Assembly: GCA_965204535.1 (NCBI GenBank)
Contig: CBDBEV010000001.1
Coordinates: forward strand, 1 to 64,000
Origin: a bacterium
GTDB taxonomy: Bacteria; UBA8248
Direction of reading: 5' to 3'
Length of the DNA: 64,000 nucleotides
The position numbers were made by a program, and so were the translations under genes. Position 1 is the first letter of the stretch. Each line of letters starts with the position of its first letter. Positions 8,794 through 33,335 of the stretch are shown here, one piece after another. The notes beneath the pieces were generated by a model, which had not been told where the DNA came from, did no database searches, and saw nothing but the letters and a program-made list of their open reading frames with translations.

Positions 8794-8819
8794 AAAGATT
8801 CATTTTGACATAGAATAAT

Positions 8820-15700: not shown

Positions 15701-17166
15701 CTTACCAGGTCGGGATCCCTCAGGTCCGTCCACACACGGCTGCCGACCCTGCCGTACGTGGACAGGGACATGATGGTCTCCGCGGCGACCGCCGTGGGCA
15801 CCGACACGGTCACCGTGTGGGTGCGCGGCGCCGGGCTCGTCACGGTCACGGTCACAGGCTCCGGCACCTCGACCACGGCCAGAGTCACCGCGAAGTTGCT
15901 CGCCCACACGGCGGGGTTTCGTTGTGGGTCGGTGGGGTGTGGATGACCGTAGGAGCCCCAGCGCATGTCGTCGACGGGCCAGGAGGCGGTGGCCGAAGTG
16001 CCACTGGCGGTCAGAGTCCTCAGGGGGAACCGCCTTTCGGCGCCAGCGGGATACTTGACGATCAGCATCAGCGACCTTGCAGCGGTGATCGCGGCGGCGC
16101 TGCCCGAGCTCAAGCCCGCGAACAGAGTGCCGTTGCGGTGATAGAAATCGCTGATGGTGTAGGTATTGCCCGCGTAAGTGAACCTGTTGGCGCCCATCGC
16201 GAGGGGGCAAGTGCCCCCCGACACACCGGTCCGGCAGCCGGACGAGTCCGTGCCCCATCGCGTCGGCTCGAGGGCCTTCGCCGCCATCGTGGTGGACCAG
16301 ATCTGGTTCTTGTCGTGATGCCGGGTCCCGTCCGGCCACAACCACGGCGACTTCGCCGGAATCTCCAGCTTCACCGCGACCTGCTGGCCGTCGGTCCATT
16401 GCGGGTCGACATACCAGTTGTGCCAACCGGTATCGCTAAATCTAACAACTCCACCAACGGGTAGCCGCACAGTGCCGAGATGCAACACCATCCCGTCAAA
16501 CTTCGACCCTGGTTCCGGGGCCGGTGACGTCGCGCTCGGTTGTATCCCGCGCAACTTCAACGATACCCTACCATTGTTGTAAAAAAGGTCTGTAACGGTA
16601 TATCTCTCACCGTTGTGCTGGAGTTCATTTTCCGTGAGCAGCGAGGGGCAGTTCGAGGTAGCGCAACCGAGATACGCCCCGTCGTCGTCGATATCATCGA
16701 CTGTCAGCGTCGCCGACCAGATCTGGGACTGCGCCTGGGCGGGCGCGGCCGCGAACAGGCCGAGCGCGCCGAGCACCAGCGCGAGGACGGGGAGCAGCGC
16801 GGGGCGGCGCCACGGAGACGCGGCCCGGCGCGCCGGGACCCTGCCGCCCCGGACTCGACGAAGCAGCCGCCGGATGGGGGAAGAGGGAGAGGAGCTTGCG
16901 TGCGCGCCCGCGGGAGCGGCGGCAGGCTCAGGCGGGAGGGAGCCCCTCGACAAACCCGGGACGGGCTCCGCCGGGGTTCGGGAAGCCGGCTTGCGGTGCC
17001 CGGGGCTCATGCCGTTCTCTTCTTCGGATGACGGATGACGGATGACGGATGACGGATGACGGATGACGGATGACGGATGACGGATGACGGATGACGGATG
17101 ACGGACTGTAGCCGATGCCGCCTCCGCTTGCAAGTCCCGGTTGGCTTCTCTCGAGCGCTGTCTCAT
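12742..17166 (-). CDS. Large autotransporter-like adhesin 1 (FN3 and Calx-beta domains, C-terminal beta-barrel)
   Basis: Signal peptide ..LGLFAAAPAQA; FN3 (PGDGSLTVSWTA..ITGLRNG); Calx-beta (VSVDYATADGTA..DYTAASGTLVFAPGET); amphipathic barrel strands ending ..RGSMRW. Confidence 0.88.
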   Translation of the reverse strand: MRQRSREANRDLQAEAASATVRHPSSVIRHPSSVIRHPSSVIRHPSSEEENGMSPGHRKPASRTPAEPVPGLSRGSLPPEPAAAPAGAHASSSPSSPIRRLLRRVRGGRVPARRAASPWRRPALLPVLALVLGALGLFAAAPAQAQSQIWSATLTVDDIDDDGAYLGCATSNCPSLLTENELQHNGERYTVTDLFYNNGRVSLKLRGIQPSATSPAPEPGSKFDGMVLHLGTVRLPVGGVVRFSDTGWHNWYVDPQWTDGQQVAVKLEIPAKSPWLWPDGTRHHDKNQIWSTTMAAKALEPTRWGTDSSGCRTGVSGGTCPLAMGANRFTYAGNTYTISDFYHRNGTLFAGLSSGSAAAITAARSLMLIVKYPAGAERRFPLRTLTASGTSATASWPVDDMRWGSYGHPHPTDPQRNPAVWASNFAVTLAVVEVPEPVTVTVTSPAPRTHTVTVSVPTAVAAETIMSLSTYGRVGSRVWTDLRDPDLVSHCDPMDPLDPATRAVNEHPDRKYPMAYIQAGQRSTTFNLCLLGVPKDVENQIMTNQVTVYLPRGRSSVTYDINVGSAYGGGSGAAEFEGGEGPGSGGEQQGDPLTAVFEDVPEEHDGTEFAILVRLSETVGSFSRSPRAWSFAVTQGRVTGVEQIGAGLWRVTVRPTSPSDVTVTLAGGRDCDDEPSGAVCTPDGRALSNTSSARVAAGPQQQQEVLVTPEPADVRVVPGDGSLTVSWTAVAHPRVAAERVQHALRWSQEAGVWANPSGNNGVAVEAGVNGYTITGLRNGVATGVFVRAFVGRLRSERSEHSSGWVRVKGEQTTPRAATQTVAVEFGKVPAEHDGRTAFALEVQSGSKPAPEAFKVTAGKVTGVESLDPVLWRVRVKPESWKDVKIALGAASATVRGPARIRVADARAKEGKDASLDFAVTLSRAASGPVSVDYATADGTAAAGADYTAASGTLVFAPGETAKTVPVALLDDAVDEGKETFKLTLSNPKGAYLRKMHREAKGVIRNDDPLQRMWLSRFGRTAAENVVEAVGARIGGGAAPGVVLGGHSLTGGKAEREAIESRLAEALLKERDARLGRGEEMPAPSVREVSMSELLLASSFHMASAENMDAGSRWSLWGRGARSSFEGAGGGLSLEGDVTTATVGFDYERSRWLVGVALSRSSGDGSYKMGGACDTGCAGEVESTLTGVWPYARYRVSGSFSLWGVVGLGSGGMTLTPGGAESMDADLDMGVAAGGARGVLLPARAPGGFELALRADVLVTDTRSDAAAGLAETEAGTSRVRLALEGSRSYKMGDAVLTPSVEIGFRNDSGDAETGGGVEAGGGLRWTSGALTAEVRARGLIAHGAGGYEEWGVSASVGYAPGSDGRGLTLRAGSSWGAAAGGAERLWSRAGGSFAGGAFDPVAGFDAEAGWGLDAWGGLLTPYTGFTLTGSGETYRAGGRFRLAESLTMSLEGDLRERDGGASVHGVALRGSMRW
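17025..17101 (+). repeat. Heptamer microsatellite (CGGATGA)x11 in the 5' region of adhesin 1
   Basis: 77 nt of perfect repeat; translates as VIRHPSS repeats on the minus strand. Confidence 0.97.
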
Positions 17167-17406
17167 TTTCCTGATCTCCTTCCCGGTATTGTGATTTTTC
17201 GCGATGGAGCCGTCCGGCTCCTCTTCAGGTGGAACGTCTGTTTACAGGGCCGCCCCCGCCTCTCCGCGCGTCGTTCAGCACGGGGAGGAAACGCTTCGCC
17301 TCACGCGCCAGGCCCCCGGAACGGCGCCGGCGGGACGACCCGCCGGGAGGGGGGCCGCGATGAGGCGGACCGGGAGGGACGGCCTGCGCTACCCCCGGTT
17401 CCGCTA

Positions 17407-20400
17407 CTACCACCGTTTCGAGCCTTTGAGCAGGAGGCCGCCTTCGGGTCTCCCGCCGCCCGCCTGTTCGGTGAGGCTCGCCTCGAGGCTCACCTCCGTG
17501 GCCGCCCCGGGCTTCCACCGCGCTCCCGCGCGCCAGGTCTCCCCGTTCCCCGAGACCGCCACGCCCGTATAGGGCGTCAGCAGCCCGCGCGGGGCGTCCA
17601 GGCCCCAGGCCGCCTCGGCCTCGAAGCCCGCGGCGCCCGGCTCGAACGCACCGGCAGGCGCCAGGCCCGCCGCCTGCGACCAGAGCCGCTCCGCACCACC
17701 GGCGGAGGCGCCCCACGAGGAGCCCGCCCGGAGCGTGAGGCCCCGTCCCCCGGAGCCGGGAGCGTACGCCACCGAGGCGCTCACGCCCCATTCCTCATAA
17801 CCGCCCTCGTTGTGGGAGATGAGGCCGCGCGCGCGCACCTCCGTCGTCAGGGCCCCCGAGGTCCAGCGGACAGAGCCGCCGGCCTCCACCCCGCCGCCCG
17901 TCTCCGCGTCGCCCGAATCGTTCCGGAACCCTATCTCCACCGAGGGCGTCAGCACCGCATCGCCGAACCGGAGCGAGCGCGAACCCTCGAGGGCGAGCCG
18001 CACCCGGCTCGTCCCGGTTTCGGTCTCCGCCAGGCCCGCCGCGGCGTCCGAGCGCGTGTCCGTCACCAGTACGTCCGCGCGAAGGGCGAGCTCGAACCCG
18101 CCCGGCGCCCGCGCGGGCAGGAGGACGCCGCGCGCGCCCCCCGCCGCCATTCCCATGTCGAGGTCGGCGTCCACCGGGGACGCGCCCCCGGGCGTGAGCG
18201 TCATCCCGCCCGAACCCAGGCCCACCACGCCCCAGAGCGAGAACGACCCGCTCAGACGGTAGCGCGCGTAGGGGTAGACGCCCGTCAGCGTGCTCTCCAA
18301 CTCGCCCGCATCGCCCGCGCCGTCCGCCTTGTACGAGCCGTCGCCCGAACTCCGCGCGAGCGCCACGCCCACCAGCCAGCGCGCGCGCTCGTAGTCCGCG
18401 CCCAGCGCCGCCGTCGTCACGTCGCCCTCTAGCGTGAGGACGCCCTCCTTGCCGCTGAACGAGGAGCGCGCCCCGCGGCCCCACACCGACCAGCGCCCCG
18501 GGGAGGCGCCCGCGTCACCCGCCGAGGCCATGTGAAACGAACTGCCCAGGAGGAGTTCGCTCATCGAGACCTCGCGCACCGTGAGCGGCGCGTCTTCCCC
18601 GCGCTCGAGCCGGGCGCCGGCCTCGCGCCGGTAGCGTTCCGCCAGGCGCGCGAGGAGCGCCTCGCGGCCGGCGGAGCCGTCCAGGCCCAGTTCCTGCCCG
18701 CCCAGCACCATCCCCGCCGCCCCGGCGCCGCCCTCGATGCGCGCGCCCACCGCTTCCACCACGTTCTCCGCCGCCGTCCGCCCGAAGCGCGCGAGCCACG
18801 CCCCCGGCATCGGGTCGTCGTTCGCGATCACCCCCTTCGCCTCGCGGTGGATGCCCCGCAGATACGCCCCTTGCGGGTTCGACAGCCGGAGCACGAACGT
18901 CTCCTTGCCCTCGTCGATGGCGTCGTCGAGGATCGCCACGCGCACCGTCCTCGCCGTCTCGCCCGGCGCGAAGGTCAGGGTGCCCGACGTGGCCGTGTAG
19001 TCCTCGCCCGCCGTGGCCGTGCCGTCGGCGGTCGCGTAGTCCACCGAGACCGCGCCCGACGCCGCGCGGCTCAGCGTCACCGCGAAGTCGAGCGAGGCGT
19101 CCTTGCCCTCCTTCGCCCGGGCGTCCGCGACCCGGACCCGCACCGGGCCGCCGATCTTCGCGACCGGCGCGTTCGCGAGCGCCCGCCCGCCGGCCGCGCA
19201 CACCGCGCCCTCCTCCGCGCAGCCGCGGCCGTCCGCCAGCGTCACCGTCACGTCGCGCCACGCATCGGGCTTCACCTTCACCCGCCACAGGCCCGCCTCG
19301 ATGCGCTCCACCTTCCGCGCCTGGCCGGCGCGCACCTTGAACGACGCCGGGACCGGCGCCACCGCGCCCTCGCCCAGCGCCTCGCTGAAGCGCACCTTCA
19401 GCCAGAACGCCCCGCTGCCGTCGTGCTCCGGGGGCGCCCCCTCGAACGCCGCCGTCAGCGGCGGACCCGCGCGCGCCACCGTCACCGCGTAGGTCCTCAC
19501 CGTCCCGTCGGCGGCGGTGACCTCGACCGCGAGCGCGTTGTCGCCCACCGCGAGCGCGATCGCGCCGCTCGACCCGCCGGCCGCCACCGCGGACAGACTC
19601 GTCCCCCTGCCGGCCCTGACCGCCGCGCCCGCGTCGTTCGCCGTCGGCGTCAGCCTGGCGTGGGTCGCGCCGTGCGGCACCGAAGCGCTGTAGCTCGCGG
19701 TCGCCGGCGAGAACGCCGGGCTCAGCGCGAGCGCATCGCCGAACGACGCGCCGTCGCCGCTCGTGCTCCCGGTCAGGGCGCTCAGCGTCGCGTCCGAGGA
19801 CGCCTGCTGCTGCTGCGCCCCGTCGTCGGTGATCGTCACCTCCACCGAGGACGACGCGCCCGCGCTCAGCCCCGAAGGCAGGCTGCCCAGCGCCACCGTG
19901 AACGTCTCGTCGTCCCCGTCGGCGTCGTCGCCCGTCGCGATCGTGCCCGAGGCCGACGTGAAGCCGGCGGGCACCGTGACCGACGCCAGCGTCCCGTGGT
20001 CCCCGTCCTCCGACGTGCCCCGGGTCACGGTGAGCGGAATCGCCACGTCCGCCGCCAGCGCCTTCGCCAGCACCGCCGTCACCGTGACCGGCGAGCCTTC
20101 CGCCACCGGGTTCGGCGTGGCCGACAGCGACACCGCGACCGCGGCCGGCGCCCCGGTCACGTCGATGCGGTAGGTCTTCCGGCCGCTTGAACCCACCGCC
20201 ATCACCCACAGCTCGGTCGTGCCGCCGTCCGGCGCCAGCGCCAGATCGAGCGCCGTCCCCGAGGGCCGCACCCGCGCCGGGCGCGTGAAGGTCGCCGCGC
20301 CCCAGCGCGAGCCCGCGAACACGCTCGCCTCGCCGCTCCAGCGCGGCGCCAGCGTCACGCCCGCCGTCCCCGCCGGCACCGACGCCCGGTAGAACGTCAC

Positions 20401-23400
20401 CCCCGGCGCGAACGCCGGGCTCAGCGCCACCGCCCCCGAACCGGCCGTGAGCGCGAGCCCGCACAGCGGTCCCGCCCCGGCCTCGCAGGCCGGCCGCGCC
20501 ACCACTTGCGTCTCCGGCTCCTTCGCCGCGTCGCTGCGCACCACCGTCAGGGTGTACTTCCGCACCGCCGCCACCTTCGGCACGGACACCTCGATGATGA
20601 CCGGGTTCTCGCCCTCCTTGAGCGCCACCTCGACCGCCGGCGTGCCGGCGTCCACCGGCTTCCCGTTCACCTTCGCCGCCGCCGACGCGTACTTCACCGC
20701 CGGCTTCACCGTCACCCGGTCCACCGCGAGCGGCACCCGCACCTCGTAGCTGCTGCTCTGCGCCTCGAGCGCCACCTCGCCCTGCGCCACCCGCTGCGCC
20801 GGGTCCGGCGACGCCACCGTCAGCGCGCGCAGGCCCAGGCCCCCCGGCCCCGGCAGCGCCAGGTTCGGCGCGTCCAGCCGCGGCGCGTGCGCGTAGGCAT
20901 ACGCGCCGAGCTCCAGGCGCGGCCCGGCCTCCCACAGCACGCACAGCTCCGCCGTCGCCTCCCGCCCGCCGGGCGGGATCTCCACCGTCGCAAGCCCGGC
21001 GAGCGGCGAGGGCAGGGTCCGGGCGGCGGCGGTCCCGCCGCACGCGCCCCACGACGCCGCCCCGATGCCGTTGAGGTGGAGGTGCACCGTCATGCCCGGC
21101 GCGCTCGGCCGGTCGAGGCGCGCCGTCACCGTCACCGTGCCGCCCGCCGCCACGGCCTGCGGGTCCGCCTCCACGACGAGCGCCGTCGGCGGGTTCGGCC
21201 CCTGCACCCGCACCCTGACGGCCGCCGCCGTCAGCGCCGGGTCGTAGGTCCCCGCCGTCACCGTCATCGTCCGCCCCGCGCCCGCCGCGGTCGCGCACAG
21301 CTTCACCGTCGCCTCCCGCTCGCCGGCGGCGAACAGGGCGCCCGTGCCGTGCTCCCAGGCGCAGTCCGGGCCCCAGCGCGCCGCGCCGCCGTCGCCCGCG
21401 GTGTCGAACCACACCTCCATCGCCTTCTTCGCCGGCGCGTCCAGCCGCGCCGTCACCGTCACCGCGCCGCCATGCGCGAGGGCGACGGGGTCCACGCCCA
21501 GCGTCAGCGCCGCCGGCGGGGCCGGCGCCCGCGGCGTGCCCGCGCCGGTGGACCAGCGAACGGGGGTCTCATGGGGATAGGCCAACGGGCGCACCCGCAC
21601 GTCGTAGGCCGTGCCGTTGGCCAGCCCCCCGATCGTGTACGCCGTGCCGGTAGCGTACACGGTCTGGGGCACGCCATTGACAACCCGCGCGCGCCCGGGC
21701 GCCACCCAGCCGGTCGACGGGTCGCCCGGCGTCGTCGCGTCCGCGTCCGGCGCCGGGGACACCTTCCACTGCACCTCGTAGCTGTGGTTCGGGCCCCACA
21801 GCTTGTTCCACGTCAGCGCCAGCGACCCGTCGCCCGTCGCCACCGACAGCACCAGGCCCGCGCTCGGGCCGGCATCGGCCGGCACCCTGCCCGGGGCGTC
21901 GTCGTCGGCGATCCTCACCGTCACCGAGTTCGGCGTGCCCGCCGACACCGACGAGGGCAGCGTGCCCAGGGACACCGTGAAGGTCTCGTCGTCGGTGCCG
22001 TCGTCCTGCGCCGTGGTGATCGTGCCCGTGCCCGTCGTCGACCCGGCGGCGATCGCGATCGACGCCAGCGTGCCGATGTCGCCGGACTCCGCGCTGCCCA
22101 GGCTCACCGTCACCGGGATGGAGACGGTGCCCGCCAGCGCCTCCGACAGCGTCGCCGTCACCGTCACCGGAGACCCCTCCGCCACCGGGTTCGGCGCCGC
22201 CGACAGCGAGACCGCCGGGGTCGTGGCGTCGTTGTCCTGGATGCTCAGCGTGAGCGTGTTCGAGGTCAGCACGGGGTTGGTGCTCGCGGCGCTGAGCACG
22301 AGCGTCTCGTCGGACTCCTCCACCGCGTCGTCGACGATGGTCAGGGTCACCCTGCCCGAGGTCTGCCCCGCGGCGATGGTGAGGGTCGTCGCCGACAGCG
22401 TGTAGTCGGCGCCGGCGCCGCTGCCCGTGGCCGTGCTGGCGCTGCCGACGCTGAGCGTCACCGCCGTGCCGCCCGTGGGCGCCGCCGCGTTGAGCCGCGC
22501 CGTGATGAACACCCCCGCACCGCCTTCGCCGGGCCGCGCGCCGGCCTCCAGCGTCAGCGCGGTGGGGGCAGTCGTGGCGGCCACGGGCGTGCCCGTGCCG
22601 GTCGCCCAGGGGCCGCCGCCGCCCGCGTTCACGGCCTGCACCCGCACCGTGTAGGCGACCCCGTTGGTCAGGCCCGTGATCGCCGCGGTCGTGCCCGTGC
22701 CGCTGTGGCCGGCATCCGCGTAGCCGGTGTCGGGGTCGCCCGTCACGCTCAGGCTCGAGGCGTCGGAACGGCGGTACTGCACCGTGTAGCCGCTCACCGT
22801 CCCCGACGGCGCCGTCCACGACAGGTCCAGCTTCCCGTCGCCCCCCGTCACGTCGAGGCCCGTCGGCGCCGCCGACGGCGCCGCGAGCTTGTTGAGCACC
22901 ACCCGGTAGGTGGTGCTGGTCTCCGCGGTGTCGTCGGAGACGGTCACCGACACCCAGGTCGCCCCGCTCGCGGCCAGGGTCACCGTCTTGGACGTGCCCG
23001 AGGAGGCGAGCGCGGACCCCTGCTGGGTCAGGATGCTGTCGAAGTCCGGCGTCGCCGAGGCGACCGTCGTCTCGACGTTGTGGCCCTCGATCCAGGTGGG
23101 GGTGACCGAGGCGCTGGTGGCCGAGACCGCCACGGTCCCGGTGTAGCTCGTCGTGCTCGTCTTGAAGGCCGGGCTCAGCGTGACCGCGCTGCCGCCCACC
23201 GTCAGCGACAGCCCGACCAGGCTGTCCCGGGTCGCCTCGTCGTCCTGGACGGTCACCGTCACCGAGTTGGGCGTGCCCGCCGACACCGACGAGGGCAGCG
23301 GCGTGCCCAGAGAGACCGTGAAGGTCTCGTGGTCGGCGTCGGTGTCCTGCGCCGTGGTGATGTCGGCGGCGCCCACGGTGAACCCCTGGGCGACGGTGAT

Positions 23401-26385
23401 GCTCGTCAGCGTGCCGATGTCGCCGGCCTCCGCCGAGCCCCGCGTCACCGTCACCGGGATGACCACGTCGCTGCCGAGCGCCGCGGACAGCGTCGCCACG
23501 ATGGTCGCCGACGAGCCCTCCGCCACCACGTTGCTCTGGTCGACCGACAGCGAGACCGTCGGGGTCGCGGCGGGCGGGGTCGTGCCCGAGGCCGCCCGGG
23601 TCACGGTCACGGTATAGGTCCGCTTCGTCGTGCCGTCCTCGGCCGTGACCTCGACCTTGATCGCGTTCGCGCCCTCCGAGAGCGCGATGGCCGAGGTCTC
23701 CGTGCCGCTCGTCACCGCGGTCAGGCTCGTGCCCTTGCCGACCTTGATGGAGGCGCCGGTGTGCGCCTTCGTCGGCGTCAGCTTCACGTGCGTGATACTG
23801 TTCGCCACCGAGGCGGTGTACGAGGTCGTCGTCGCCGAGAAGGTCGACGGGGTCAGCGCGAGCGCCGAGAACGTGCCCGCCGCGCTCGCCGCGCTCTTCA
23901 CCGTCAGACCGCTCAGCTCCGAGTTGGTGGATTGGGTGGCCCCCTTGACCGCGCCGTTGACGCGGATCTTCAACTCGACCGAATTGGTTCTCCAGGCGGT
24001 GCCGGCACGGCCGTGGCGCGTGTCCCCGATGCTCCAGCCCGATGCGCTGCCCGAATCCTCGTTGTTGGTCCTCGTGGTCCGCAGCGACCCGGTGGTGGCG
24101 CCGCTCCTGTAGACGACCACGAAATACGAGGTGCTCGCGGCGAGCGACGTGTTCGACGGCGCGGCAAAGGCGACCGCGCCCGCCCCGACCGTCGACGGGA
24201 CCGTGAGGCTCGCGAGCTTCGAGTCCGGAGCGCCGGCGCCGGTCGCCGACCACAGCTCCGCCCGCAGGTTCGCAGGCGTGCCCACCGCGGCGGCGAAGTC
24301 GATCTCGAGGCTCGCCAGCGTGTAGCCGGCGGTGGCGCTTCCGGTCGTGAACTTCTGGGCGACCGGATTGCTGCCGACCGTGACGGTGGGCGTGAACGTG
24401 GTCTGCCCGAGATTGCTCACCAGCGCGTTGGCGGAGGCGGGCGCGGCGGTCGAGGTGTCGGCGATGGTTATCGTCGTCTTCTCGCTCGCGCGGACCACCG
24501 TGTAGGGCTCGCCGGTGACTTTCTGCAGGAACCAGGTCGCGGTCTCGGCGCCCTCCGTCGTCCCGTCCGCCACCGCGGCCAGCGTGAAGGTCGCGGTCGT
24601 GGCGTTGGCCGGCAGCGCCAGCATCCGCGAGCCCGCGCGCCCGGTCAGCCCGCTGAAGGTGTAGTCCTCGGGATTGTTGGACGAGCTCGGGGTCGTCGCC
24701 AGGACGGCGACCCTGCTGGCCGTGGTCAGCGCGGGCGAGATGTTCACCGTCAGCGTGACGCTCGCGCCCTCGTTGACGCTGTAGGTCGTCGAGGCGAAGC
24801 TCACCTGCGGGGTCGTCGCGGCCGCGCAGGACGCGGCGATTTTCAGGGAGACCGGCGTGCCGGCGGTCCAGCCCGGGTTGGTGCTGGTAAGAATCTGGCT
24901 GGGAGCAATACCGATTGAATACCCGGTCGTGCCGACGCAGAACTTCAGCGCCCGGAGCGCGGCATTCGGGGCAGCGTTGAAACTCACCCCCAGACCAAGG
25001 CCGGAGGAGGCCGCTATTTCGGTGAAATGATATGCGGTGCCGCCAACCGTGAAGCTGTTGTCCGTCAGCCGCGTATCGCAGTCGGTCTTGCTCGTGCACC
25101 CGATCACATTGTTACCGCTCGCCGGCGTCAGCGTCGCCGACCAGGGGGCGGTGGCGGTCGAGGCCGCCCGCGTCACCGTCACGGTGTAGGTCCGCTTCGT
25201 GGTGCCGTCCTCGGCGGTGACCTCGACCTTGATCGCGTTCGCGCCCTCCGAGAGCGCGATCGCCGTGCTCTCCGTGCCGCTGCCCACCGCCGTCAGGCTC
25301 GTGCCCTTGCCGACCTTGACCGTGGCTTTGCCGGTGGCCTCCACCGTGGGCGTCAGCTTGACGTGGGTGATGCTGTTGGCCACCGAGGCGGTGTAGGCGA
25401 GGGTCGCCTTGGCGAAGGTCGCCGGGCTCAGCGCGAGCGCCGAGAACGTCCCCGTCCCGCTCGTCGCGCTCTTCGCCGCCAGCGCGCTCAGGTTCGCGTT
25501 GGTGGACAGCGCGGCCCCCCTGGCCGAGCCGTTGACGCGGATCAGCCGGGTCTCGGTCCAGGTCGACCAGCTGCTCGGGGGGTTGCCGTTGTTGCCCGTG
25601 GCGAAACGGCTCGTGTCGTCGACGCTCCAGCCGGCCGCGGCGCCGCTGTCCTCGCTGTCGCTGGCCGTGTTCAGGATCTGGAATTGCATGTTGGTGGCGG
25701 GGGACCGGCTCGCGGCGCCGCCGATGACGAAGTAGTAAGTAGTGTTCGCCGCGAGCCGGGTGCCCGCCGGCGCGGCGAAGACGATGTTGGCGGGGGTGGC
25801 GCCGCTTGCCGAGATGGTGGCCGGCACCGTCAGATCGGCGAGCTTCACGCCCGGGTTGCCGGTCACGTCCGACCAAAGCTGCGCCCGGAGCTCGCTGGGT
25901 GCGGCCTCGGACTGGTTGGTGCGCGCCTCGATGCTGGTCAGCGTGTAGCCGGCCGTGTTGCTCCCGGTGGTGAACGCCTGGGCGTGCCACCGGTTCGCCC
26001 ACACCCGGCCCCCGCCGGCCGCGGCGGTCTGCCCGACGGTGCTCACCAGCACGTCGGCGGAAGCGGGCGCGGCGGCGAACGGGGAGAACATCCCGAGCAG
26101 CAGCGCGAGGACGGGGAGGAGGGCGGGGAGCAGCGCGAGGCGGCGCCACGCGGACGCGGCCCGGCGGGAGGACGGGACGCGCGAGCGGGTCACGGACTCA
26201 GACCCCCGCAGACGCGGACGCAACTCGGCTCTCGGCTCTCGGCTCTCGGCTCTCGGCTCTCGGCTCTCGGCTCTCGGCTCTCGGCTCTCGGCTCTCGGCT
26301 CTCGGCTCTCGGCTCTCGGCTCTCGGCTCTCGGCTCTTATATTATGGTTATGAGATGATTCCACGCCCGCAGTTGTCAAGTCCAT
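17407..26385 (-). CDS. Giant autotransporter-like adhesin 2 (2992 aa; cadherin-like beta-sandwich, Calx-beta and FN3 repeats, beta-barrel)
   Basis: Repeated NAIKVEVTAEDGTT..YTVTVTRA, DDETFTVSLG and FN3 W..P..Y.V.Y..GL.NG..Y.VRV modules; barrel ending ..KGSKRW. Confidence 0.88.
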   Translation of the reverse strand: MDLTTAGVESSHNHNIRAESREPRAESREPRAESREPRAESREPRAESREPRAELRPRLRGSESVTRSRVPSSRRAASAWRRLALLPALLPVLALLLGMFSPFAAAPASADVLVSTVGQTAAAGGGRVWANRWHAQAFTTGSNTAGYTLTSIEARTNQSEAAPSELRAQLWSDVTGNPGVKLADLTVPATISASGATPANIVFAAPAGTRLAANTTYYFVIGGAASRSPATNMQFQILNTASDSEDSGAAAGWSVDDTSRFATGNNGNPPSSWSTWTETRLIRVNGSARGAALSTNANLSALAAKSATSGTGTFSALALSPATFAKATLAYTASVANSITHVKLTPTVEATGKATVKVGKGTSLTAVGSGTESTAIALSEGANAIKVEVTAEDGTTKRTYTVTVTRAASTATAPWSATLTPASGNNVIGCTSKTDCDTRLTDNSFTVGGTAYHFTEIAASSGLGLGVSFNAAPNAALRALKFCVGTTGYSIGIAPSQILTSTNPGWTAGTPVSLKIAASCAAATTPQVSFASTTYSVNEGASVTLTVNISPALTTASRVAVLATTPSSSNNPEDYTFSGLTGRAGSRMLALPANATTATFTLAAVADGTTEGAETATWFLQKVTGEPYTVVRASEKTTITIADTSTAAPASANALVSNLGQTTFTPTVTVGSNPVAQKFTTGSATAGYTLASLEIDFAAAVGTPANLRAELWSATGAGAPDSKLASLTVPSTVGAGAVAFAAPSNTSLAASTSYFVVVYRSGATTGSLRTTRTNNEDSGSASGWSIGDTRHGRAGTAWRTNSVELKIRVNGAVKGATQSTNSELSGLTVKSAASAAGTFSALALTPSTFSATTTSYTASVANSITHVKLTPTKAHTGASIKVGKGTSLTAVTSGTETSAIALSEGANAIKVEVTAEDGTTKRTYTVTVTRAASGTTPPAATPTVSLSVDQSNVVAEGSSATIVATLSAALGSDVVIPVTVTRGSAEAGDIGTLTSITVAQGFTVGAADITTAQDTDADHETFTVSLGTPLPSSVSAGTPNSVTVTVQDDEATRDSLVGLSLTVGGSAVTLSPAFKTSTTSYTGTVAVSATSASVTPTWIEGHNVETTVASATPDFDSILTQQGSALASSGTSKTVTLAASGATWVSVTVSDDTAETSTTYRVVLNKLAAPSAAPTGLDVTGGDGKLDLSWTAPSGTVSGYTVQYRRSDASSLSVTGDPDTGYADAGHSGTGTTAAITGLTNGVAYTVRVQAVNAGGGGPWATGTGTPVAATTAPTALTLEAGARPGEGGAGVFITARLNAAAPTGGTAVTLSVGSASTATGSGAGADYTLSATTLTIAAGQTSGRVTLTIVDDAVEESDETLVLSAASTNPVLTSNTLTLSIQDNDATTPAVSLSAAPNPVAEGSPVTVTATLSEALAGTVSIPVTVSLGSAESGDIGTLASIAIAAGSTTGTGTITTAQDDGTDDETFTVSLGTLPSSVSAGTPNSVTVRIADDDAPGRVPADAGPSAGLVLSVATGDGSLALTWNKLWGPNHSYEVQWKVSPAPDADATTPGDPSTGWVAPGRARVVNGVPQTVYATGTAYTIGGLANGTAYDVRVRPLAYPHETPVRWSTGAGTPRAPAPPAALTLGVDPVALAHGGAVTVTARLDAPAKKAMEVWFDTAGDGGAARWGPDCAWEHGTGALFAAGEREATVKLCATAAGAGRTMTVTAGTYDPALTAAAVRVRVQGPNPPTALVVEADPQAVAAGGTVTVTARLDRPSAPGMTVHLHLNGIGAASWGACGGTAAARTLPSPLAGLATVEIPPGGREATAELCVLWEAGPRLELGAYAYAHAPRLDAPNLALPGPGGLGLRALTVASPDPAQRVAQGEVALEAQSSSYEVRVPLAVDRVTVKPAVKYASAAAKVNGKPVDAGTPAVEVALKEGENPVIIEVSVPKVAAVRKYTLTVVRSDAAKEPETQVVARPACEAGAGPLCGLALTAGSGAVALSPAFAPGVTFYRASVPAGTAGVTLAPRWSGEASVFAGSRWGAATFTRPARVRPSGTALDLALAPDGGTTELWVMAVGSSGRKTYRIDVTGAPAAVAVSLSATPNPVAEGSPVTVTAVLAKALAADVAIPLTVTRGTSEDGDHGTLASVTVPAGFTSASGTIATGDDADGDDETFTVALGSLPSGLSAGASSSVEVTITDDGAQQQQASSDATLSALTGSTSGDGASFGDALALSPAFSPATASYSASVPHGATHARLTPTANDAGAAVRAGRGTSLSAVAAGGSSGAIALAVGDNALAVEVTAADGTVRTYAVTVARAGPPLTAAFEGAPPEHDGSGAFWLKVRFSEALGEGAVAPVPASFKVRAGQARKVERIEAGLWRVKVKPDAWRDVTVTLADGRGCAEEGAVCAAGGRALANAPVAKIGGPVRVRVADARAKEGKDASLDFAVTLSRAASGAVSVDYATADGTATAGEDYTATSGTLTFAPGETARTVRVAILDDAIDEGKETFVLRLSNPQGAYLRGIHREAKGVIANDDPMPGAWLARFGRTAAENVVEAVGARIEGGAGAAGMVLGGQELGLDGSAGREALLARLAERYRREAGARLERGEDAPLTVREVSMSELLLGSSFHMASAGDAGASPGRWSVWGRGARSSFSGKEGVLTLEGDVTTAALGADYERARWLVGVALARSSGDGSYKADGAGDAGELESTLTGVYPYARYRLSGSFSLWGVVGLGSGGMTLTPGGASPVDADLDMGMAAGGARGVLLPARAPGGFELALRADVLVTDTRSDAAAGLAETETGTSRVRLALEGSRSLRFGDAVLTPSVEIGFRNDSGDAETGGGVEAGGSVRWTSGALTTEVRARGLISHNEGGYEEWGVSASVAYAPGSGGRGLTLRAGSSWGASAGGAERLWSQAAGLAPAGAFEPGAAGFEAEAAWGLDAPRGLLTPYTGVAVSGNGETWRAGARWKPGAATEVSLEASLTEQAGGGRPEGGLLLKGSKRW
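26224..26335 (+). repeat. Heptamer microsatellite (CTCGGCT)x16 in the 5' region of adhesin 2
   Basis: 112 nt of perfect repeat; translates as RAESREP repeats on the minus strand. Confidence 0.97.
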
Positions 26386-26622
26386 TACCCATGCCCCCTG
26401 ATAAGTCCCGGCGTTTACCGGGAAGCGCGAACGCCGGAACGCCGGGTTCGGTTTGTCCTCCTCCGCCCGAAGCCGTTTCAGCCTGCTGCCGGCATCCTGC
26501 CATGGTTCATGATCCCCAACTCCTCGCCACCCTCCGCCGGCGCCGGCGGGACGACCCGCCGGGAGGGGGGCCGCGATGAAGCGGGGCGGGAGGAACGGCC
26601 CGCGCTTCCCCCGGGTCCGCCC

Positions 26623-29600
26623 CTACCACCGCATCGAGCCCCTGAGCGCCACGCCGTGGACGGAAGCGCCCCCGTCCCTCTCGCGCAGGTCGCCCTCGAG
26701 GCTCATGGTGAGGGACTCGGCGAGCCGGAAGCGCCCGCCCGCGCGGTACGTCTCCCCGCTCCCGGTGAGGGTGAAGCCGGTGTAGGGCGTCAGGAGTCCG
26801 CCCCAGGCGTCGAGGCCCCAGCCCGCCTCGGCGTCGAAGCCCGCCACGGGGTCGAACGCTCCTCCCGCGAAGCTCCCCCCGGCCCGGGACCAGAGCCGCT
26901 CGGCGCCGCCCGCGGCCGCGCCCCAGGAAGAACCCGCCCGGAGCGTGAGGCCCCGTCCGTCCGAACCCGGCGCGTACCCCACCGAGGCGCTCACGCCCCA
27001 TTCCTCATAACCGCCGGCGCCGTGGGCGATGAGGCCGCGCGCTCTCACCTCCGCCGTCAGGGCGCCCGAGGTCCAGCGCAGGCCGCCGCCCGCCTCGACG
27101 CCCCCGCCCGTCTCCGCGTCGCCCGAATCGTTCCGGAACCCTATCTCCACCGAGGGCGTCAGCACCGCATCGCCGAACCTGTACGAGCGCGAACCCTCGA
27201 GGGCGAGCCGCACACGGCTCGTCCCGGCTTCGGTCTCCGCCAGGCCCGCCGCGGCGTCCGAGCGCGTGTCCGTCACCAGGACGTCCGCGCGGAGCGCGAG
27301 CTCGAACCCGCCCGGCCCGCGCGCGGGCAGGAGGACGCCGCGCGCGCCCCCCGCCGCCATTCCCATGTCGAGGTCGGCGTCCATCGACTCAGCCCCCTCG
27401 GGCGTGAGCGTCATCCCGCCCGAGCCCAGGCCCACCACGCCCCAGAGCGAGAACGACCCGCTCACACGGTAGCGCGCGTAGGGCCAGACGCCCGTCAGCG
27501 TGCTCTCCACCTCGCCCGCGCAGCCCGTATCGCACGCGCCGCCCATTTTGTACGAGCCGTCGCCCGAACTCCGCGAGAGCGCCACGCCCACCAGCCAGCG
27601 CGACCGCTCGTAGTCGAAGCCCACGGTCGCCGTCGTCACGTCGCCCTCGAGCGAGAGACCGCCCCCGGCGCCCTCGAACGAGGAGCGCGCCCCGCGGCCC
27701 CACAGCGACCAGCGCGAGCCGGCGTCCATATTCTCCGCCGAGGCCATGTGAAACGAACTCGCGAGCAGGAGGTCGCTCATCGAGACCTCGCGCACCGAAG
27801 GCGCCGGCATCTCCTCGCCGCGCCCGAGACGGGCGTCCCTCTCCTTCAAGAGGGCCTCGGCGAGGCGCGACTCGATGGCCTCGCGCTCCGCCTTGCCGCC
27901 CGTGAGGCTGTGGCCGCCCAGCACGACGCCCGCGGCGGCGCCGCCCCCGATGCGCGCGCCCACCGCTTCCACCACGTTCTCCGCCGCCGTGCGCCCGAAC
28001 CGCGACAGCCACATCGCCTGCAGCGGGTCGTCGTTCCTGATGACCCCCTTCGCCTCGCGGTGCATCTTGCGCAGATACGCCCCCTGCGGGTTCGAGAGCG
28101 TGAGACTGAACGTCTCCTTGCCCTCGTCATGCGAGTCGTCGAGCAGCGCCACCGGGACCGTCTTCGCCGTCTCGCCCGGCGCGAAGACGAGCGTGCCCGA
28201 CGCGGCCGTGTAGTCCGCCCCCGCCGCCGCCGTGCCGTCCTTCGTCGCGTAGTCCACCGACACCGGCCCCGACGCCGCGCGGTGGAGCGTCACCGCGAAG
28301 TCGAGCGAGGCGTCCTTGCCCTCCTTCGCCCGCGCGTCCGCGACCCGGATGCGCGCCGGGCCCGGGACCTTCGCCGACGCCTCGCCGAGCGCGATCTTCA
28401 CGTCCTTCCAGGAACTCGGCGCGACGCGGACCCGCCACAGCACCGGGTCCAGCGGCTCCACGCCCGTGACCGTCCCGGCCGTCACCTTGAACGCGTCGGC
28501 AGCGGGCTCCGAGCCCGACTGCACGTCGAGGACGAACGCCGTCCGCCCGTCATGCTCCTCCGGGACCTTGCCGAACTCTACCGCCACGGTCTGGGCCTCT
28601 TCTTCCGGCGGGGTCTGTTCCTCGGGCACCTGCGCCTGCACCTGCGCCTCGGTCACCTCGATGCGGTAGTCCGTGGTCGTCAACCCCGGTTCGGACACCG
28701 TCACCTCCAGCCTGGTCGGGCCGTCCGGCGACAGCGGCAGCGCCGCCGCCGTGCCGGAGCCATGGACCCGCTGCCGCGACAGAAGCGTCAGATGCGGCGC
28801 CGGCCGGCGCGAGCGCGCCCACACGGTCGGCGCGGCCGCCGCGCCCCACGACGGTTCCAGCGACACCGCACGGGTCCCCGCCGGGACCTCCGCCCGGTAC
28901 GACTTCACCCCCGGCGAGAAGGCCGGAACCAGCGCCACCGCCTGCGAGCCCGCCGTGAGCGCAAGACCGCTCAGCGGACCGCCCGCCGCCGCCGTCTGCG
29001 GCGCCGCAGCCCCGGCCACCTCGACGCGGTACGTCGTGGTCGTCCCCTGCAATCGCTTCCCCGAACCGTCCGGTTCGAGCACCGTCACCTCCAGCCTGGT
29101 CGGGCCGGACGGCGACAGCGCCAGCGCCGCCGCCGTGCCGGAGGCGTGAACCTGCGCCTGCGCCAGCATCGCCGCTGGCCCTTGCGAAACCAAAACCACG
29201 CTCGGCGAGCCGCCCAGCTCGGCCTCCGCGCCCCAGTGCGGCGCCAGCGTCACGCCCGCCGTCCCCGCCGGGACCTCCGCCCGGTAGGACAGCACATTCG
29301 GCGAGAAGGCCGGGACCAGCGCCACCGCCTGCGAGCCGGCCGAGAGCGCAAGACCGCTCAGCGGACCGCCCGCCGCCGCGCGCGCCGCCGCCAGCCGCTG
29401 CTTCTCCGCCTCCGCGGCCGCCTCCGCCGCGAGCCGCGCCGCCTCCGTCTCCTCGTCCTCGTGGTTCGTAATCGTCAGGGTGAGCTCGGCAGCGCCCATG
29501 TAGGTCAGCAGGCTTGTCCGCCTGCTGCACGTCGGGCAGTTCTCTACTTGCCTGCCGGTGTACTGAATGCCCGCATGGTCCGCCCTGACGCCGATGTCGA

Positions 29601-31296
29601 TCGTCTCGCCGGAGTCCTCGTGCGGGTCGTCGACGACGTGAATCTCGAAGCTCGCGCTCCGGCTCCCGGAAGGGATGTGCAGCAGGTTCGCGGCCTGGAC
29701 GGTCTCGGAAGACGTCCTTCCGAACCAGCCTTTGCCCTCGTTGCGCACCGGCCTCCTGTAATCGTCATATTCCGGACCGGCCGGTACCGGCGTGCGGTAG
29801 TCCTCCCCCCAGGTCGCCGTGCCGCCGAGGTTGACGGTCACATTCACGCCGCCGTCAAGCGCCGGCTCGGGCAGCGTGACCGTCACCGTGACCGGCGCGC
29901 CGCCCTCGCGCGGCGCGCCGCTGGCGCTCAGGGTCGGACCGCTGGCGCTCAGGGCCGGAGAGGGGTCCGGCGCCGTCAGCCTCACCCCGACCTGCTGGCC
30001 GTCGCTCCATTGCGGGTTGACGCCGTTCCATGTGTAACTTTCTTCAATGCCGAATGAACCAACGGGTAGCCGCGTAGCGCCGAGATGCAACACCATCCCG
30101 GCAAGATTCGACCGTGGTGTCGGGTTGATGTCAATTCTTGCCGACCTACTGGTAGGAAAGTAAAACAAACCTTCGACTAGATAGGTCACACCGTTGTACT
30201 CGAACTCATCGTCCGAGAGCGCCACGGAGCAGTTGTCTGCGGAGGCGGCGAGGGAGCAGCCGAGAAACCCTGAGCCCTCATCGACTGTCAGCGTCGGGCT
30301 CCAGACGGTGTTCCGCCCCGCGCCCCCGTCGACGGAGGGCACACCGGGGGCGGGCATCTCCAGACTCACGCGAACCCGGCCCGACGCGGGCAGCGAGCCC
30401 AACCAAGAGTAGCCGTTTTCGCTTGGAGAGGCGTCTTCGACGCCATTCCGGTAGACGGAGAAACCGCCCACAGCGCCGTCCGCCAGCGACCAGCGCGTGC
30501 TGCCGACAACCAGCGTCGCGCGCTGCGCGAAGGCAGCGGGGATGTTCCGATCCAACGCGATGTCGATCTGGTTTCGTCGAGTACCCGAGAAGAGATAGCT
30601 AGTAGACTGGAGAACCGCGACCCGGTAGGTCTGGCCGCCATAGCTGAAGCTGTCGTCCGTCAGCGCACCCCGGCAGCGATAGGTTGTTGAGACGAATCTC
30701 GGCTCCGTGCAACCGCGACCGACAATGTGACCGAAATGAGCCCGTGTGTAGTCGTAGTTCTGCACGTCCAGCATGGCGGACCAGAGGGTGACGGTATTCT
30801 GCGCCTGGGCCGGCGCGGCCGCGAACAGGCCGAGCGCGCCGAGCAGCAGCGCCAGCGCGGGGAGGAGGGCGAGGCGGCGCCACGGGGACGCTGACCGGCG
30901 CGCCGGGACCCTGCCGCCCCGGACTCGACGAAGCAGCCGCCGGATGGGGGAAGAGGGAGAGGAGCTTGCGTGCGCGCCCGCGAGGGCGGCGGCAGGCTCA
31001 GGCGGGAGGGAGCCCCTCGACAAACCCGGGACGGGCTCCGCCGGGGTTCGGGAAGCCGGCTTGCGGCGCCCGGGGCTCATGCCGTTCTCTTCGGATGACG
31101 GATGACGGATGACGGATGACGGATGACGGATGACGGATGACGGATGACGGATGACGGATGACGGATGACGGATGACGGATGACGGATGACGGATGACGGA
31201 TGACGGATGACGGATGACGGATGACGGATGACGGACTGTAGCCGATGCCGACTCCGCTTGCAAGTCCCGGTTGGCTTCCCTAGAGCGCTGTCTCAT
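26623..31296 (-). CDS. Large autotransporter-like adhesin 3 (paralogue of adhesin 1)
   Basis: N-terminal leader and last ~650 aa nearly identical to adhesin 1, with a different central passenger region. Start placed at ATG 31296 (MRQRSRE, RBS GGAGGAG) rather than 31434. Confidence 0.88.
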   Translation of the reverse strand: MRQRSREANRDLQAESASATVRHPSSVIRHPSSVIRHPSSVIRHPSSVIRHPSSVIRHPSSVIRHPSSEENGMSPGRRKPASRTPAEPVPGLSRGSLPPEPAAALAGAHASSSPSSPIRRLLRRVRGGRVPARRSASPWRRLALLPALALLLGALGLFAAAPAQAQNTVTLWSAMLDVQNYDYTRAHFGHIVGRGCTEPRFVSTTYRCRGALTDDSFSYGGQTYRVAVLQSTSYLFSGTRRNQIDIALDRNIPAAFAQRATLVVGSTRWSLADGAVGGFSVYRNGVEDASPSENGYSWLGSLPASGRVRVSLEMPAPGVPSVDGGAGRNTVWSPTLTVDEGSGFLGCSLAASADNCSVALSDDEFEYNGVTYLVEGLFYFPTSRSARIDINPTPRSNLAGMVLHLGATRLPVGSFGIEESYTWNGVNPQWSDGQQVGVRLTAPDPSPALSASGPTLSASGAPREGGAPVTVTVTLPEPALDGGVNVTVNLGGTATWGEDYRTPVPAGPEYDDYRRPVRNEGKGWFGRTSSETVQAANLLHIPSGSRSASFEIHVVDDPHEDSGETIDIGVRADHAGIQYTGRQVENCPTCSRRTSLLTYMGAAELTLTITNHEDEETEAARLAAEAAAEAEKQRLAAARAAAGGPLSGLALSAGSQAVALVPAFSPNVLSYRAEVPAGTAGVTLAPHWGAEAELGGSPSVVLVSQGPAAMLAQAQVHASGTAAALALSPSGPTRLEVTVLEPDGSGKRLQGTTTTYRVEVAGAAAPQTAAAGGPLSGLALTAGSQAVALVPAFSPGVKSYRAEVPAGTRAVSLEPSWGAAAAPTVWARSRRPAPHLTLLSRQRVHGSGTAAALPLSPDGPTRLEVTVSEPGLTTTDYRIEVTEAQVQAQVPEEQTPPEEEAQTVAVEFGKVPEEHDGRTAFVLDVQSGSEPAADAFKVTAGTVTGVEPLDPVLWRVRVAPSSWKDVKIALGEASAKVPGPARIRVADARAKEGKDASLDFAVTLHRAASGPVSVDYATKDGTAAAGADYTAASGTLVFAPGETAKTVPVALLDDSHDEGKETFSLTLSNPQGAYLRKMHREAKGVIRNDDPLQAMWLSRFGRTAAENVVEAVGARIGGGAAAGVVLGGHSLTGGKAEREAIESRLAEALLKERDARLGRGEEMPAPSVREVSMSDLLLASSFHMASAENMDAGSRWSLWGRGARSSFEGAGGGLSLEGDVTTATVGFDYERSRWLVGVALSRSSGDGSYKMGGACDTGCAGEVESTLTGVWPYARYRVSGSFSLWGVVGLGSGGMTLTPEGAESMDADLDMGMAAGGARGVLLPARGPGGFELALRADVLVTDTRSDAAAGLAETEAGTSRVRLALEGSRSYRFGDAVLTPSVEIGFRNDSGDAETGGGVEAGGGLRWTSGALTAEVRARGLIAHGAGGYEEWGVSASVGYAPGSDGRGLTLRAGSSWGAAAGGAERLWSRAGGSFAGGAFDPVAGFDAEAGWGLDAWGGLLTPYTGFTLTGSGETYRAGGRFRLAESLTMSLEGDLRERDGGASVHGVALRGSMRW
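31092..31231 (+). repeat. Heptamer microsatellite (CGGATGA)x20 in the 5' region of adhesin 3
   Basis: 140 nt of perfect repeat, same unit and flanks as 17025-17101. Confidence 0.97.
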
Positions 31297-31492
31297 TTTC
31301 CTGCTCCTCCCTCTTTCCCGGTATTGTGATTTCTCGCGATGAGGACACCCGGCTCCCTTCAGTCGGAAGGAAAGCATCCCCCAGACACCATAACCACCCG
31401 ATATATCTGCCTGCACGTGCATGGAATTATACAAGTGTGATATGTATTTAATGTGAGGTTTTGGGCTTCAGTCGTGTTATTTTCATGAGAAA

Positions 31493-32824
31493 ATGCGGTT
31501 GGATGCGTCGCCGCTCCCGAATTCGGCAGAAATGCTCCAGTTCTTCCGCATCATCAACGAGCAGGCCGACCACATGCGGGACCTGATCAGCAACCTGCTG
31601 GACGCGGGGCGCATCGACGCGGGCACGTTGTCGGTCGCGCCCGAGTCCTCGGAGGTGGCGGCGCTGGTGGACCAGGCAAGAAACACGTTCCTGAGCAGCG
31701 GCGGCCGACACCCCCTCCTCATCGACCTTCCGCCGGATTTGCCCCGGGTGATGGCGGACCGCCAGCGCATGGTCCAGGTTCTGAACAACCTCTTGTCCAA
31801 CGCGGCGAGGCATTCTACGGAATCCTCCCCGATTCGGATCGCCGCGGAACACAAGGAAGAGTACGTCGCGGTCTCGGTCTCCGACGAAGGCCGGGGCGTA
31901 GCGCCCGAACTGCTGCCCCGCCTGTTCGAGAAGCACGCCGGCGTCGCCAACGCAGACGAGGCAGGCGGGTTTGGCCGGAGCGGCTTGGGCCTTGCCATCT
32001 GCAAGGGTCTGGTCGAGGCCCACGGGGGCCGCATCCGGGCGGAGAGCGGCGGTCCGGGCCAGGGAACCTGCTTCACCTTCACCATCGCGACGGCAGGGGA
32101 GGCGGGCGAGGGCGCTGACGAGCGGCCGCCCCGGGAAGCGCGTGAGCCGACGCGCATTCTCGTGGTGGACGACGACCCGCAGACGCTGCGTTTCGTTCGC
32201 GACACGCTTACGGAGGCGGGTTACGCCCCGCTCGTCACGGGCGAGGCGCGGGAGCTCTCCCGGCTCATCCGGGCCGAGAATCCCCAGCTGGTCCTGCTGG
32301 ATCTGGTGCTGCCGGGGGCCGACGGGATCGAACTGATGGAAAGCGTCCCGGAACTCGCCGACCTGCCTGTGATCTTCATCTCGGGCTACGGACGGGACGA
32401 GACCATCGCCAAGGCCCTGAAGAGCGGAGCCGCCGACTATATCGTCAAGCCCTTCTCGGGGACCGAGCTGACGGCGAGGGTCGGGGCAGCCCTGCGCCAC
32501 AGGGTCGAGCCCGAACCCTTCCTCATGGGGGAGCTGGCCATCCACTACGATCTGCGCCGGGTGACCATGGCTGGGCGCCGGTTGGAACTGACGGCGACCG
32601 AATACGAACTGTTGCGCCTGCTCTCACTCCGCGCGGGGCGGGTATTGACCTGCGATTCGTTGCTGCGCCAGATATGGGGCATACACGACCCGGACGACCC
32701 AAAGCTGGTGCGCACGTTCGTGAAGCAGCTCCGCCGGAAGCTCGGCGATGACGCGGCCCGGCCCACCTGGATCCTGACCGAGCGCGGGGTCGGCTACCGC
32801 ATGGCCGCACCCGAAAACCCCTGA
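31493..32824 (+). CDS. N-terminally truncated hybrid protein: partial HisKA, HATPase, receiver and OmpR-type winged helix
   Basis: QVLNNLLSNA, VSDEGRG, GLGLAICK; ILVVDDD..LVLLDLVLP..YIVKPFS; LTATEY..LRRKL..TERGVGY. No H-box or sensor domain. Confidence 0.8.
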   Translation: MRLDASPLPNSAEMLQFFRIINEQADHMRDLISNLLDAGRIDAGTLSVAPESSEVAALVDQARNTFLSSGGRHPLLIDLPPDLPRVMADRQRMVQVLNNLLSNAARHSTESSPIRIAAEHKEEYVAVSVSDEGRGVAPELLPRLFEKHAGVANADEAGGFGRSGLGLAICKGLVEAHGGRIRAESGGPGQGTCFTFTIATAGEAGEGADERPPREAREPTRILVVDDDPQTLRFVRDTLTEAGYAPLVTGEARELSRLIRAENPQLVLLDLVLPGADGIELMESVPELADLPVIFISGYGRDETIAKALKSGAADYIVKPFSGTELTARVGAALRHRVEPEPFLMGELAIHYDLRRVTMAGRRLELTATEYELLRLLSLRAGRVLTCDSLLRQIWGIHDPDDPKLVRTFVKQLRRKLGDDAARPTWILTERGVGYRMAAPENP

Positions 32825-33306: not shown

Positions 33307-33335
33307 GGTCCGCCCGTCTTCTCCCGAATATCTCC

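Follow-up and report, generated by a model that had tools for sequence, protein, structure and literature searches.

Three tandem genes with heptamer tracts

The window analysed here, a stretch of 64,000 nucleotides from a bacterial assembly of the lineage UBA8248 (GCA_965204535.1), carries three genes that are arranged head to tail on the minus strand and encode proteins of 1474, 2992 and 1557 aa when read from ATG codons at 17166, 26385 and 31296. In each of them (genes 1, 2 and 3), the reading frame is open from this upstream ATG (ATG1), located 48–61 bases 5′ of a tract of seven-base repeats, through the tract and into a hydrophobic signal peptide that ends in AQA/ASA. Heptamer tracts between the ATG and the signal peptide had been noticed in the first-pass annotation, and all three proved to be perfect, correctly placed and in frame; the difference of nine units between genes 1 and 3 was likewise found (with one additional GAA codon behind the tract).

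Gene 1 (12742–17166; features of all three genes are given for the minus strand) comprises a long leader, a signal peptide, a variable passenger, a Calx-beta domain and a C-terminal outer-membrane barrel. Its ATG1 (17164–17166) has a strong Shine-Dalgarno (SD) sequence (−9.0 to −9.4 kcal/mol). The perfect tract (CGGATGA, TCCGTCA on the coding strand) spans 17025–17105, contains 11.6 units and is in frame from ATG1. A predicted promoter-like site in the leader (TTGCAA-17-TACAGT, 17105–17133), which is below the threshold of a standard scan, ends on the first base of the tract. Behind the tract lies a second in-frame start with a weak SD (−3.2), the ATG of MSPG followed by A (ATGA; ATG at 17008–17010). 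The signal peptide predicted from the sequence (hydrophobic and cleavage region, residues 124–145) is encoded at 16732–16797, and the autotransporter-related C-terminal β-barrel, with more than 12 predicted strands, at 12745–13824. Gene 2 (17407–26385) encodes five cadherin-like and two Calx-beta domains, FN3, choice-of-anchor R and the barrel. Its ATG1 (26383–26385, SD −9.4) is in frame with a perfect tract of 16.3 units of CTCGGCT (AGAGCCG on the coding strand) at 26224–26337, at the edge of which lies a predicted promoter-like site (GTGGAA-17-TATAAG, 26336–26364) that was not flagged by the standard scan and is among the two weakest of the 24 sites described below. The second in-frame start of gene 2 is a GTG, also followed by A (GTGA; GTG at 26191–26193), with an SD of −9.8 kcal/mol. 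Gene 3 (26623–31296) encodes cadherin-like and Calx-beta domains and the barrel; its last 656 aa are 96% identical to those of gene 1, compared with 44% for the passenger. The longest listed open reading frame (ORF) of gene 3 begins at a TTG at 31434, and the SD-supported start homologous to that of gene 1 is the ATG1 at 31294–31296 (−10.4 to −11.9). The perfect CGGATGA tract (31092–31235) has 20.6 units, and the predicted promoter-like site (TTGCAA-17-TACAGT, 31235–31263), again unflagged by the standard scan, ends on its first base. The second in-frame start, the ATG of MSPG, is at 31078–31080 (weak SD, −2.9). Approximately 130 bases 5′ of ATG1, a TATAAT box picked out by eye (31423–31434) is a candidate upstream promoter.

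Searches of Pfam and NCBIfam matched Calx-beta, cadherin-like, FN3 and choice-of-anchor R modules in the window proteins, and the first three of these domain types make it likely that the proteins are adhesive surface proteins. As in type Va autotransporters (BrkA, EstA, AIDA-I and NalP), a signal peptide, a passenger and a C-terminal barrel related to PF03797 are combined in one chain, as judged from the sequence, a barrel model and the Atlas score. The C-terminal 360 aa scored 0.98 against an Atlas autotransporter cluster with 33% PF03797; a domain scan did not find PF03797 in the three window proteins, and it matched 7 of 23 aligned homologues. The model (pLDDT 76.8), with ∼17–18 predicted strands, was similar to BrkA (Z 14.6, rmsd 6.1, 207 residues aligned) and OmpC28 (Z 14.2, rmsd 3.8, 237 residues aligned), and on this basis the barrel family appears to have about six strands added on the C-terminal side of the autotransporter domain. 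The window proteins thus differ from type Va proteins in a barrel of ∼360 aa with predicted extra strands and in a passenger of Calx-beta, cadherin-like and FN3 domains rather than a β-helix. A sequence search of solved structures with the barrel returned nothing significant, and an internal duplication in the barrel was unsupported (best probability 38.7%). The barrel family (query 12745–13824) has 7358 representatives at E ≤ 0.001.

In this genome the tracts are specific to one gene family

The whole genome (4.56 Mb) was scanned for perfect repeats with units of 2–12 bases, at least 4 units and at least 20 bp. Six tracts were found, all of them heptamers of the two units present in the window and all located at the 5′ end of a barrel-family gene; the heptamers are therefore not a genomic background, which the first-pass annotation had named as an alternative. 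The scan also gave six homopolymer runs of 10–13 bases. The 11 full-length paralogues include six with a long tract, two with a two-unit seed and three without either, and five intact genes in the genome bear a tract. The six tracts represent two origins and not six, since four of them descend from one leader and two from another. The leader of genes 1 and 3 is also present at the front of three exported genes of unrelated type, at C2:1576448, 462736 and 478567 (C1 and C2 denote contigs of this assembly, G000), two of which have glycine-rich calcium-binding-type repeats and one of which encodes a small cysteine-rich protein, so this leader has been shuffled between surface genes. In a paralogue of gene 2 (C2:559142–560942), an element that we take to be IS110-like from our reading of its ORF lies exactly at the 5′ edge of an 8-unit tract, and an extra 52-base segment breaks the frame behind the tract. 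A remnant of a gene 3-like barrel precedes this paralogue, which identifies it as a relic of the same tandem array. Loss of mismatch repair was considered as a cause of the tracts and rejected, as MutS and MutL are present in open frames. Mismatch repair is evaded by loops larger than about four bases, and units of 5–8 bases would be favoured by this.

Unit number differs between two copies of a mobile island

The three genes lie in the right part of a mobile island (1–34752) that is present twice in the assembly, at C1:183067–221523 and, with different flanks, from C2:2956119 to the contig end plus window 1–34752. The copies are identical over window 1–13134 except for one base and over 30346–34621 except for the tract of gene 3, which has 20 units in the window and 12 in the other copy (12.6 units, C1:217921–218008); all listed CRISPR spacers are common to both. 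With 12 units, the upstream ATG of the C1 copy is out of frame. A frame-shifting difference in unit number between copies is thus observed, resting on one assembly. The second island copy contains a single adhesin gene where the window has three. This gene shares 93% identity with gene 3; its passenger is a mosaic, and its 3′ end resembles that of gene 1. The passenger of gene 3 differs from its C1 counterpart at 189 positions in 4554 bases. When window 26623–30345 is compared with C1:213387–217200, the differences are patchy and lie between identical ends, with a dense block at ∼30020–30345, which indicates that recombination among paralogues diversifies the passengers.

It could be argued that the tracts are stable and that an assembly artefact or a co-binned strain accounts for the length difference or even for the whole second copy, given the genome contamination of 5.26%, the two contigs that are broken within the island and the one-base difference that splits the window cas9. 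We consider this very improbable, because the copies differ in their flanks and in the passenger mosaic, a co-binned strain would itself show length variation, and unit numbers also differ among paralogues in relatives assembled as single contigs (13, 17, 26 and 27 in genome G022; 22, 23 and 29 in G008). The tracts are real, family-specific and variable in length.

Different non-triplet units occupy a similar place in relatives

The barrel was found in 18 of 22 other members of the genus. Among 80 regions fetched around the 5′ ends of barrel genes (one region was taken twice), 13 contained a long tract, which in two cases heads a neighbouring small secreted gene; the units were CCGAACT, TCCAGTC, GCCTCAA, AGCCG and AGACCCGC. 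Pattern searches in 51 genomes of the class added 7 loci, and the genes checked behind them were three classical autotransporters, a Tat-type PAP2 protein and a metallo-β-lactamase-fold gene, with one tract located at a contig end; two later pattern searches yielded no further loci. In 69 metagenome loci (492 kb), there were four repeats, three of which are in-gene hexamers. The fourth, at locus L258, is a heptamer within the sequence encoding the signal peptide of a protein with RTX repeats; its unit was found in 0 of the 51 class genomes. Exact searches for three copies of either window unit in the 50 other class genomes were negative, as was a search of the metagenomes for the leader-plus-tract pattern of genes 1 and 3. 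No translated tract was seen at the N-terminus of 150 representative homologues, a result that is uninformative because gene callers choose starts.

Relatives therefore use six further units of 5–8 bases at a similar place. All eight leader units are non-triplet (5, 7 or 8 bases); seven, when translated, are stop-free on the coding strand, and the eighth is also open. The repeated use of different units, which had been suggested from the window for heptamers, is thus supported and extends more widely, to 5-, 7- and 8-mers in relatives. In locus L217 (genome G009), a short frame with SD support contains a 14-unit heptamer and terminates at the ATG of a metallo-β-lactamase-fold gene; this genome has no barrel match, so the design is not limited to adhesins. 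The same ATTAGAT/AATAGAT motif stands behind tracts of three different units and gives a stop directly behind the repeat (L063, L064, L068, L157, L162, L165, L166, L212, L213, L214 and L216).

A promoter-like site abuts the first repeat unit

In all 24 tracts scored, which come from 10 genomes, a predicted sigma-70-like −35/−10 pair with a spacer of 17–18 bases ends at −2 to +9 bases relative to the start of the repeat, although the matches are weak. This count leaves out the C1 copy, which is identical to gene 3, and the gene 2 paralogue with the IS110-like element at the tract edge. A score of at least 12 of 16 was reached at 22 of the 24 tracts; among control windows, it was reached by 1.4% of 4000 placed at random and by 3.2% of 617 located 5′ of genes. 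The weights used were our own and were set after the GCCTCAA loci had been seen. In an unweighted re-test of 13 leader types, some of whose GCCTCAA leaders share ancestry, the edge had 8–11 of 12 matches, compared with 4–7 on the opposite strand, and only 0–2 of 30 upstream windows equalled the edge score. In the metagenome locus L258, identified later, TTGACA-18-TATAGT precedes the tract by two bases. The position of the predicted promoter at the first repeat unit, even within coding sequence, is statistically clear. The sites in the window are weak (8 of 12 matches); a standard promoter scan gave no site in the 800-base regions around the three window tracts, and in relatives it flagged other upstream sites and not those at tract edges.

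These sites raise the possibility that the tract-edge site is the main promoter, that the mRNA begins with the tract and that unit number tunes expression from the second start gradually, as a 5′ untranslated region (UTR) does in the hmw genes of Haemophilus influenzae. The predicted site at every tract edge, the re-test result in 13 of 13 leader types, the second start in all three window genes and the 10 of 24 tracts that cannot fuse with the gene behind them all fit this explanation. It leaves unexplained the loci L258, L063/L064 and L199–L201, in which a nested transcript would have no start for the signal peptide, and the SD sequences at the second ATG of genes 1 and 3 are weak. Moreover, the standard scan does not flag the tract-edge sites, and no hmw-like hairpin is predicted: the leaders of genes 1 and 2 fold worse than shuffled sequences (z +2.0 and +4.0), with the repeats unpaired in the centroid structure, and the predicted accessibility of the second start hardly shifts with unit number (0.31–0.36). 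We therefore regard it as possible but somewhat unlikely.

The tracts might also be a mutational by-product of the promoter, with short duplications expanding at transcription starts and being tolerated in dispensable multi-copy surface genes. Tract position indeed follows the promoter-like site, irrespective of the unit and of where the start codons lie. In the leader family of genes 1 and 3, the site is intact in 4 of 4 long tracts, an equal score is reached by 2 of 12 short copies, and in all five perfect two-unit seeds it is broken by a deletion in the spacer. Promoter-dependent hotspots of point mutation are also described (PMC11838912), and a review mentions collision-induced duplications while doubting their general weight (PMC13296718). 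Nevertheless, thousands of other promoters in the genome are free of tracts (six tracts in 4.56 Mb), every unit is non-triplet, and the checked genes are mostly exported (autotransporters, the Tat-type PAP2 protein and the RTX-repeat protein, with one metallo-β-lactamase-fold gene), which makes a pure by-product distinctly unlikely.

Start codons and reading frames

The first-pass annotation had cautioned that an internal Met follows the repeat in genes 1 and 3. This was justified, as both genes have an in-frame second start, and the GTG of gene 2 adds a third that had not been foreseen. SD energies are −9 to −12 kcal/mol for ATG1; at the second start they are about −3 in genes 1 and 3 and −9.8 in gene 2. 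In genome G002 (L061/L062), the second ATG is lost (ACG) and the gene is read in frame from ATG1, and in G014 (L063/L064), G013 (L199–L201) and L258 a tract is present without a usable start before the hydrophobic region. With no start behind their tracts, several homologues would thus use ATG1.

In genes 1 and 3, one unit fewer leads to a stop at a TGA that overlaps the second ATG, and one unit more to a stop 80 bases past it; in gene 2, the stops of the other two frames are at +1 and −7 from the GTG, and in L063/L064 they are at +1 and +5 behind the tract. Seven members with 1–2 units and an intact gene are in frame from ATG1 (C2 338k, C2 2305k, C2 478k, L051, L061, L062 and L230), and another, C2 1576k, stops on the second start. 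Decayed copies were set aside (C2 1453k, L239 and L250, in which ATG1 is lost, and L227, which has a second frameshift). Out-of-frame states occur at two paralogues, and the overshooting state was seen only at two long tracts, those of the C1 copy and C2 1574k.

On the observed tracts, frames, stop positions and inter-copy length difference, we base the following scheme, in which start use, expression levels and adhesion itself are what we infer. Slippage would alter the unit number. With the tract in frame, ribosomes starting at the strong upstream ATG would read straight through, a state that is likely ON and is the one found in all three window genes. In the second frame, translation would terminate on top of the weak second start and would likely be coupled to it (ON or partial expression). 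In the third, ribosomes would run ∼27 codons past the second start, probably leaving expression OFF or low. The predicted promoter at the first repeat unit could add a second, frame-independent transcript and may also drive instability; since ATG1 is upstream of this site, such a transcript would be limited to the second start. The second start behind the tract and the promoter-like site in front of it may thus give three frame states per gene. The interpretation that we prefer, and on which we are evenly poised between acceptance and doubt, is that the tracts are simple sequence repeat (SSR) contingency loci in which length sets expression by frame, with the nested promoter adding a route or instability. 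The notion of a contingency locus, put forward in the first-pass annotation, is upheld by the restriction of 6 of 6 tracts to one family, by the 20 versus 12 units in the two island copies and by the out-of-frame paralogues. The plain ON/OFF switch that went with it, with up to eight combinatorial surface states, is no more than one possibility, as the second starts and promoter-like sites may instead allow three frame states per gene or a graded 5′-UTR effect.

Several observations weigh against control by frame. Ten of the 24 tracts (nine GCCTCAA loci and L068) cannot fuse with the downstream gene in any frame, so frame is not a rule for the whole family. The 14 fusible tracts (L214, which has no SD-supported ATG1, was left out, and L198 was scored from an ATG at −143) are in frame in 8 cases, which with paralogues counted separately gives P = 0.058 against one third. 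The overlap of start and stop (NTGA) is weak evidence, because A is found at +4 in 44% of 656 SD-supported starts. Read-through would place 88–143 residues before the hydrophobic region, which is unusually long for Sec export, and the second start of gene 2 has an SD as strong as that of the first. Locus L227 (genome G011) lacks a slippery tract and yet is out of frame from ATG1, although a further frameshift lies downstream in this locus. The public contigs stop within the tracts (four runs on the C1 copy and four on gene 1), and the only junction spanning the tract of gene 1 is consistent with a known two-unit paralogue.

A bolder variant of the contingency-locus interpretation holds that the nested promoter in the signal-peptide coding region serves to seed and destabilise the repeat at its +1 position and not to express the gene, and that this arrangement is lineage-wide, has been rebuilt at least eight times with different units of 5–8 bases and gives three heritable states per adhesin. 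We think this rather doubtful. The cases that suit it best are L258, L063/L064 and L199–L201, together with the leader family of genes 1 and 3, in which only leaders with an intact site have expanded.

Comparison with known phase-variable systems

Repeat-driven phase variation is mostly documented in vertebrate pathogens, where it is selected by antibodies, and the gonococcal opa genes carry a pentamer in the signal-peptide coding region. Frame-based phase variation by non-triplet SSRs in coding regions is established, for example in the meningococcal autotransporters NalP and MspA (polyC), and opa is present in multiple copies (PMC4235727). The genes described here resemble these systems in being multi-copy outer-membrane genes that have conserved ends and a variable middle and that carry, close to the 5′ end, a non-triplet repeat whose unit number sets the frame. 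They differ in their heptamer units, the second start behind the tract, the promoter-like site in the coding leader, the location on a mobile island and the uncultured, probably symbiotic host. In hmw1A and hmw2A of H. influenzae, where changes in the length of (ATCTTTC)n required transcription (PMC12721329, PMC2651432), a heptamer tract of 10–30 units also precedes an adhesin; it is transcribed from an upstream promoter, as would be expected from the predicted sites in the window. In hmw, the repeats are not translated and form an RNase III hairpin by base pairing, whereas the tracts in the window are in frame with an upstream ATG and no hairpin is predicted for genes 1 and 2; export is also autotransporter-like here, unlike the two-partner route of hmw. 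In pil1 of Streptococcus gallolyticus, GCAGA repeats similarly lie in a short upstream frame whose stop moves with unit number and control downstream surface genes, but the pil1 leader acts on a terminator (PMC3894217). A pattern scan found no terminator-like site in the 800-base regions around the three window tracts, and one of the frames here fuses with the gene.

Heptamer SSRs are described as common but little studied in bacteria (PMC4692102). Our literature searches, which left most subscription papers outside, found no paper joining phase variation, SSRs and a sponge symbiont and no title concerned with the repeats of this lineage or with a nested promoter adjacent to an SSR. The concentration of all long repeats of a probable sponge symbiont at one shuffled family of surface proteins suggests selection through phage or host-cell recognition. 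Unit number modulo three could provide a DNA-only read-out of the surface state from long-read metagenomes. The fixed position of the tracts at a predicted transcription start would offer a natural test of whether transcription creates and destabilises repeats, as proposed for hmw (PMC12721329).

Host bacterium, mobile island and neighbouring genes

The uncultured host bacterium is probably a sponge symbiont. Sponge metagenomes are among the sequencing runs that contain part of the region, the one examined matching by short divergent pieces only; runs with a small share of the region do not indicate habitat, and no RNA run was among those listed. The part of the island in the window encodes two tyrosine integrases, a TrwC relaxase, IS256, cas1 and cas9 in addition to a CRISPR array and the adhesin array. 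Both island ends carry GCATTTGCCCGCA-like motifs, which are candidate attachment or arm sites, and a 10-kb relative of the island (93% identity) lies beside another adhesin at C2:345481–355406. The type II CRISPR-Cas system occupies window 1–4574 and C1:198968–205600 and contains cas1, a cas9 frame of 1068 codons and ∼22 repeats with a period of 66; cas9 is split by the one-base difference near 1695 in the window and is open in the C1 copy. The cargo at 4600–12600, with a GC content of 52% that is lower than the 73% of the adhesin block, includes a GNAT gene, a tyrosinase domain, a peptidase U49 and a DprA-like gene. Divergent from gene 3, on the plus strand, an ORF at 31493–32824 combines partial HisKA, HATPase, receiver and OmpR-type DNA-binding domains in one chain. 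Outside the island, the window contains an imperfect 10-base repeat of 4.4 copies (57190–57233) and a type ISP-like restriction-modification gene (58801–62163).

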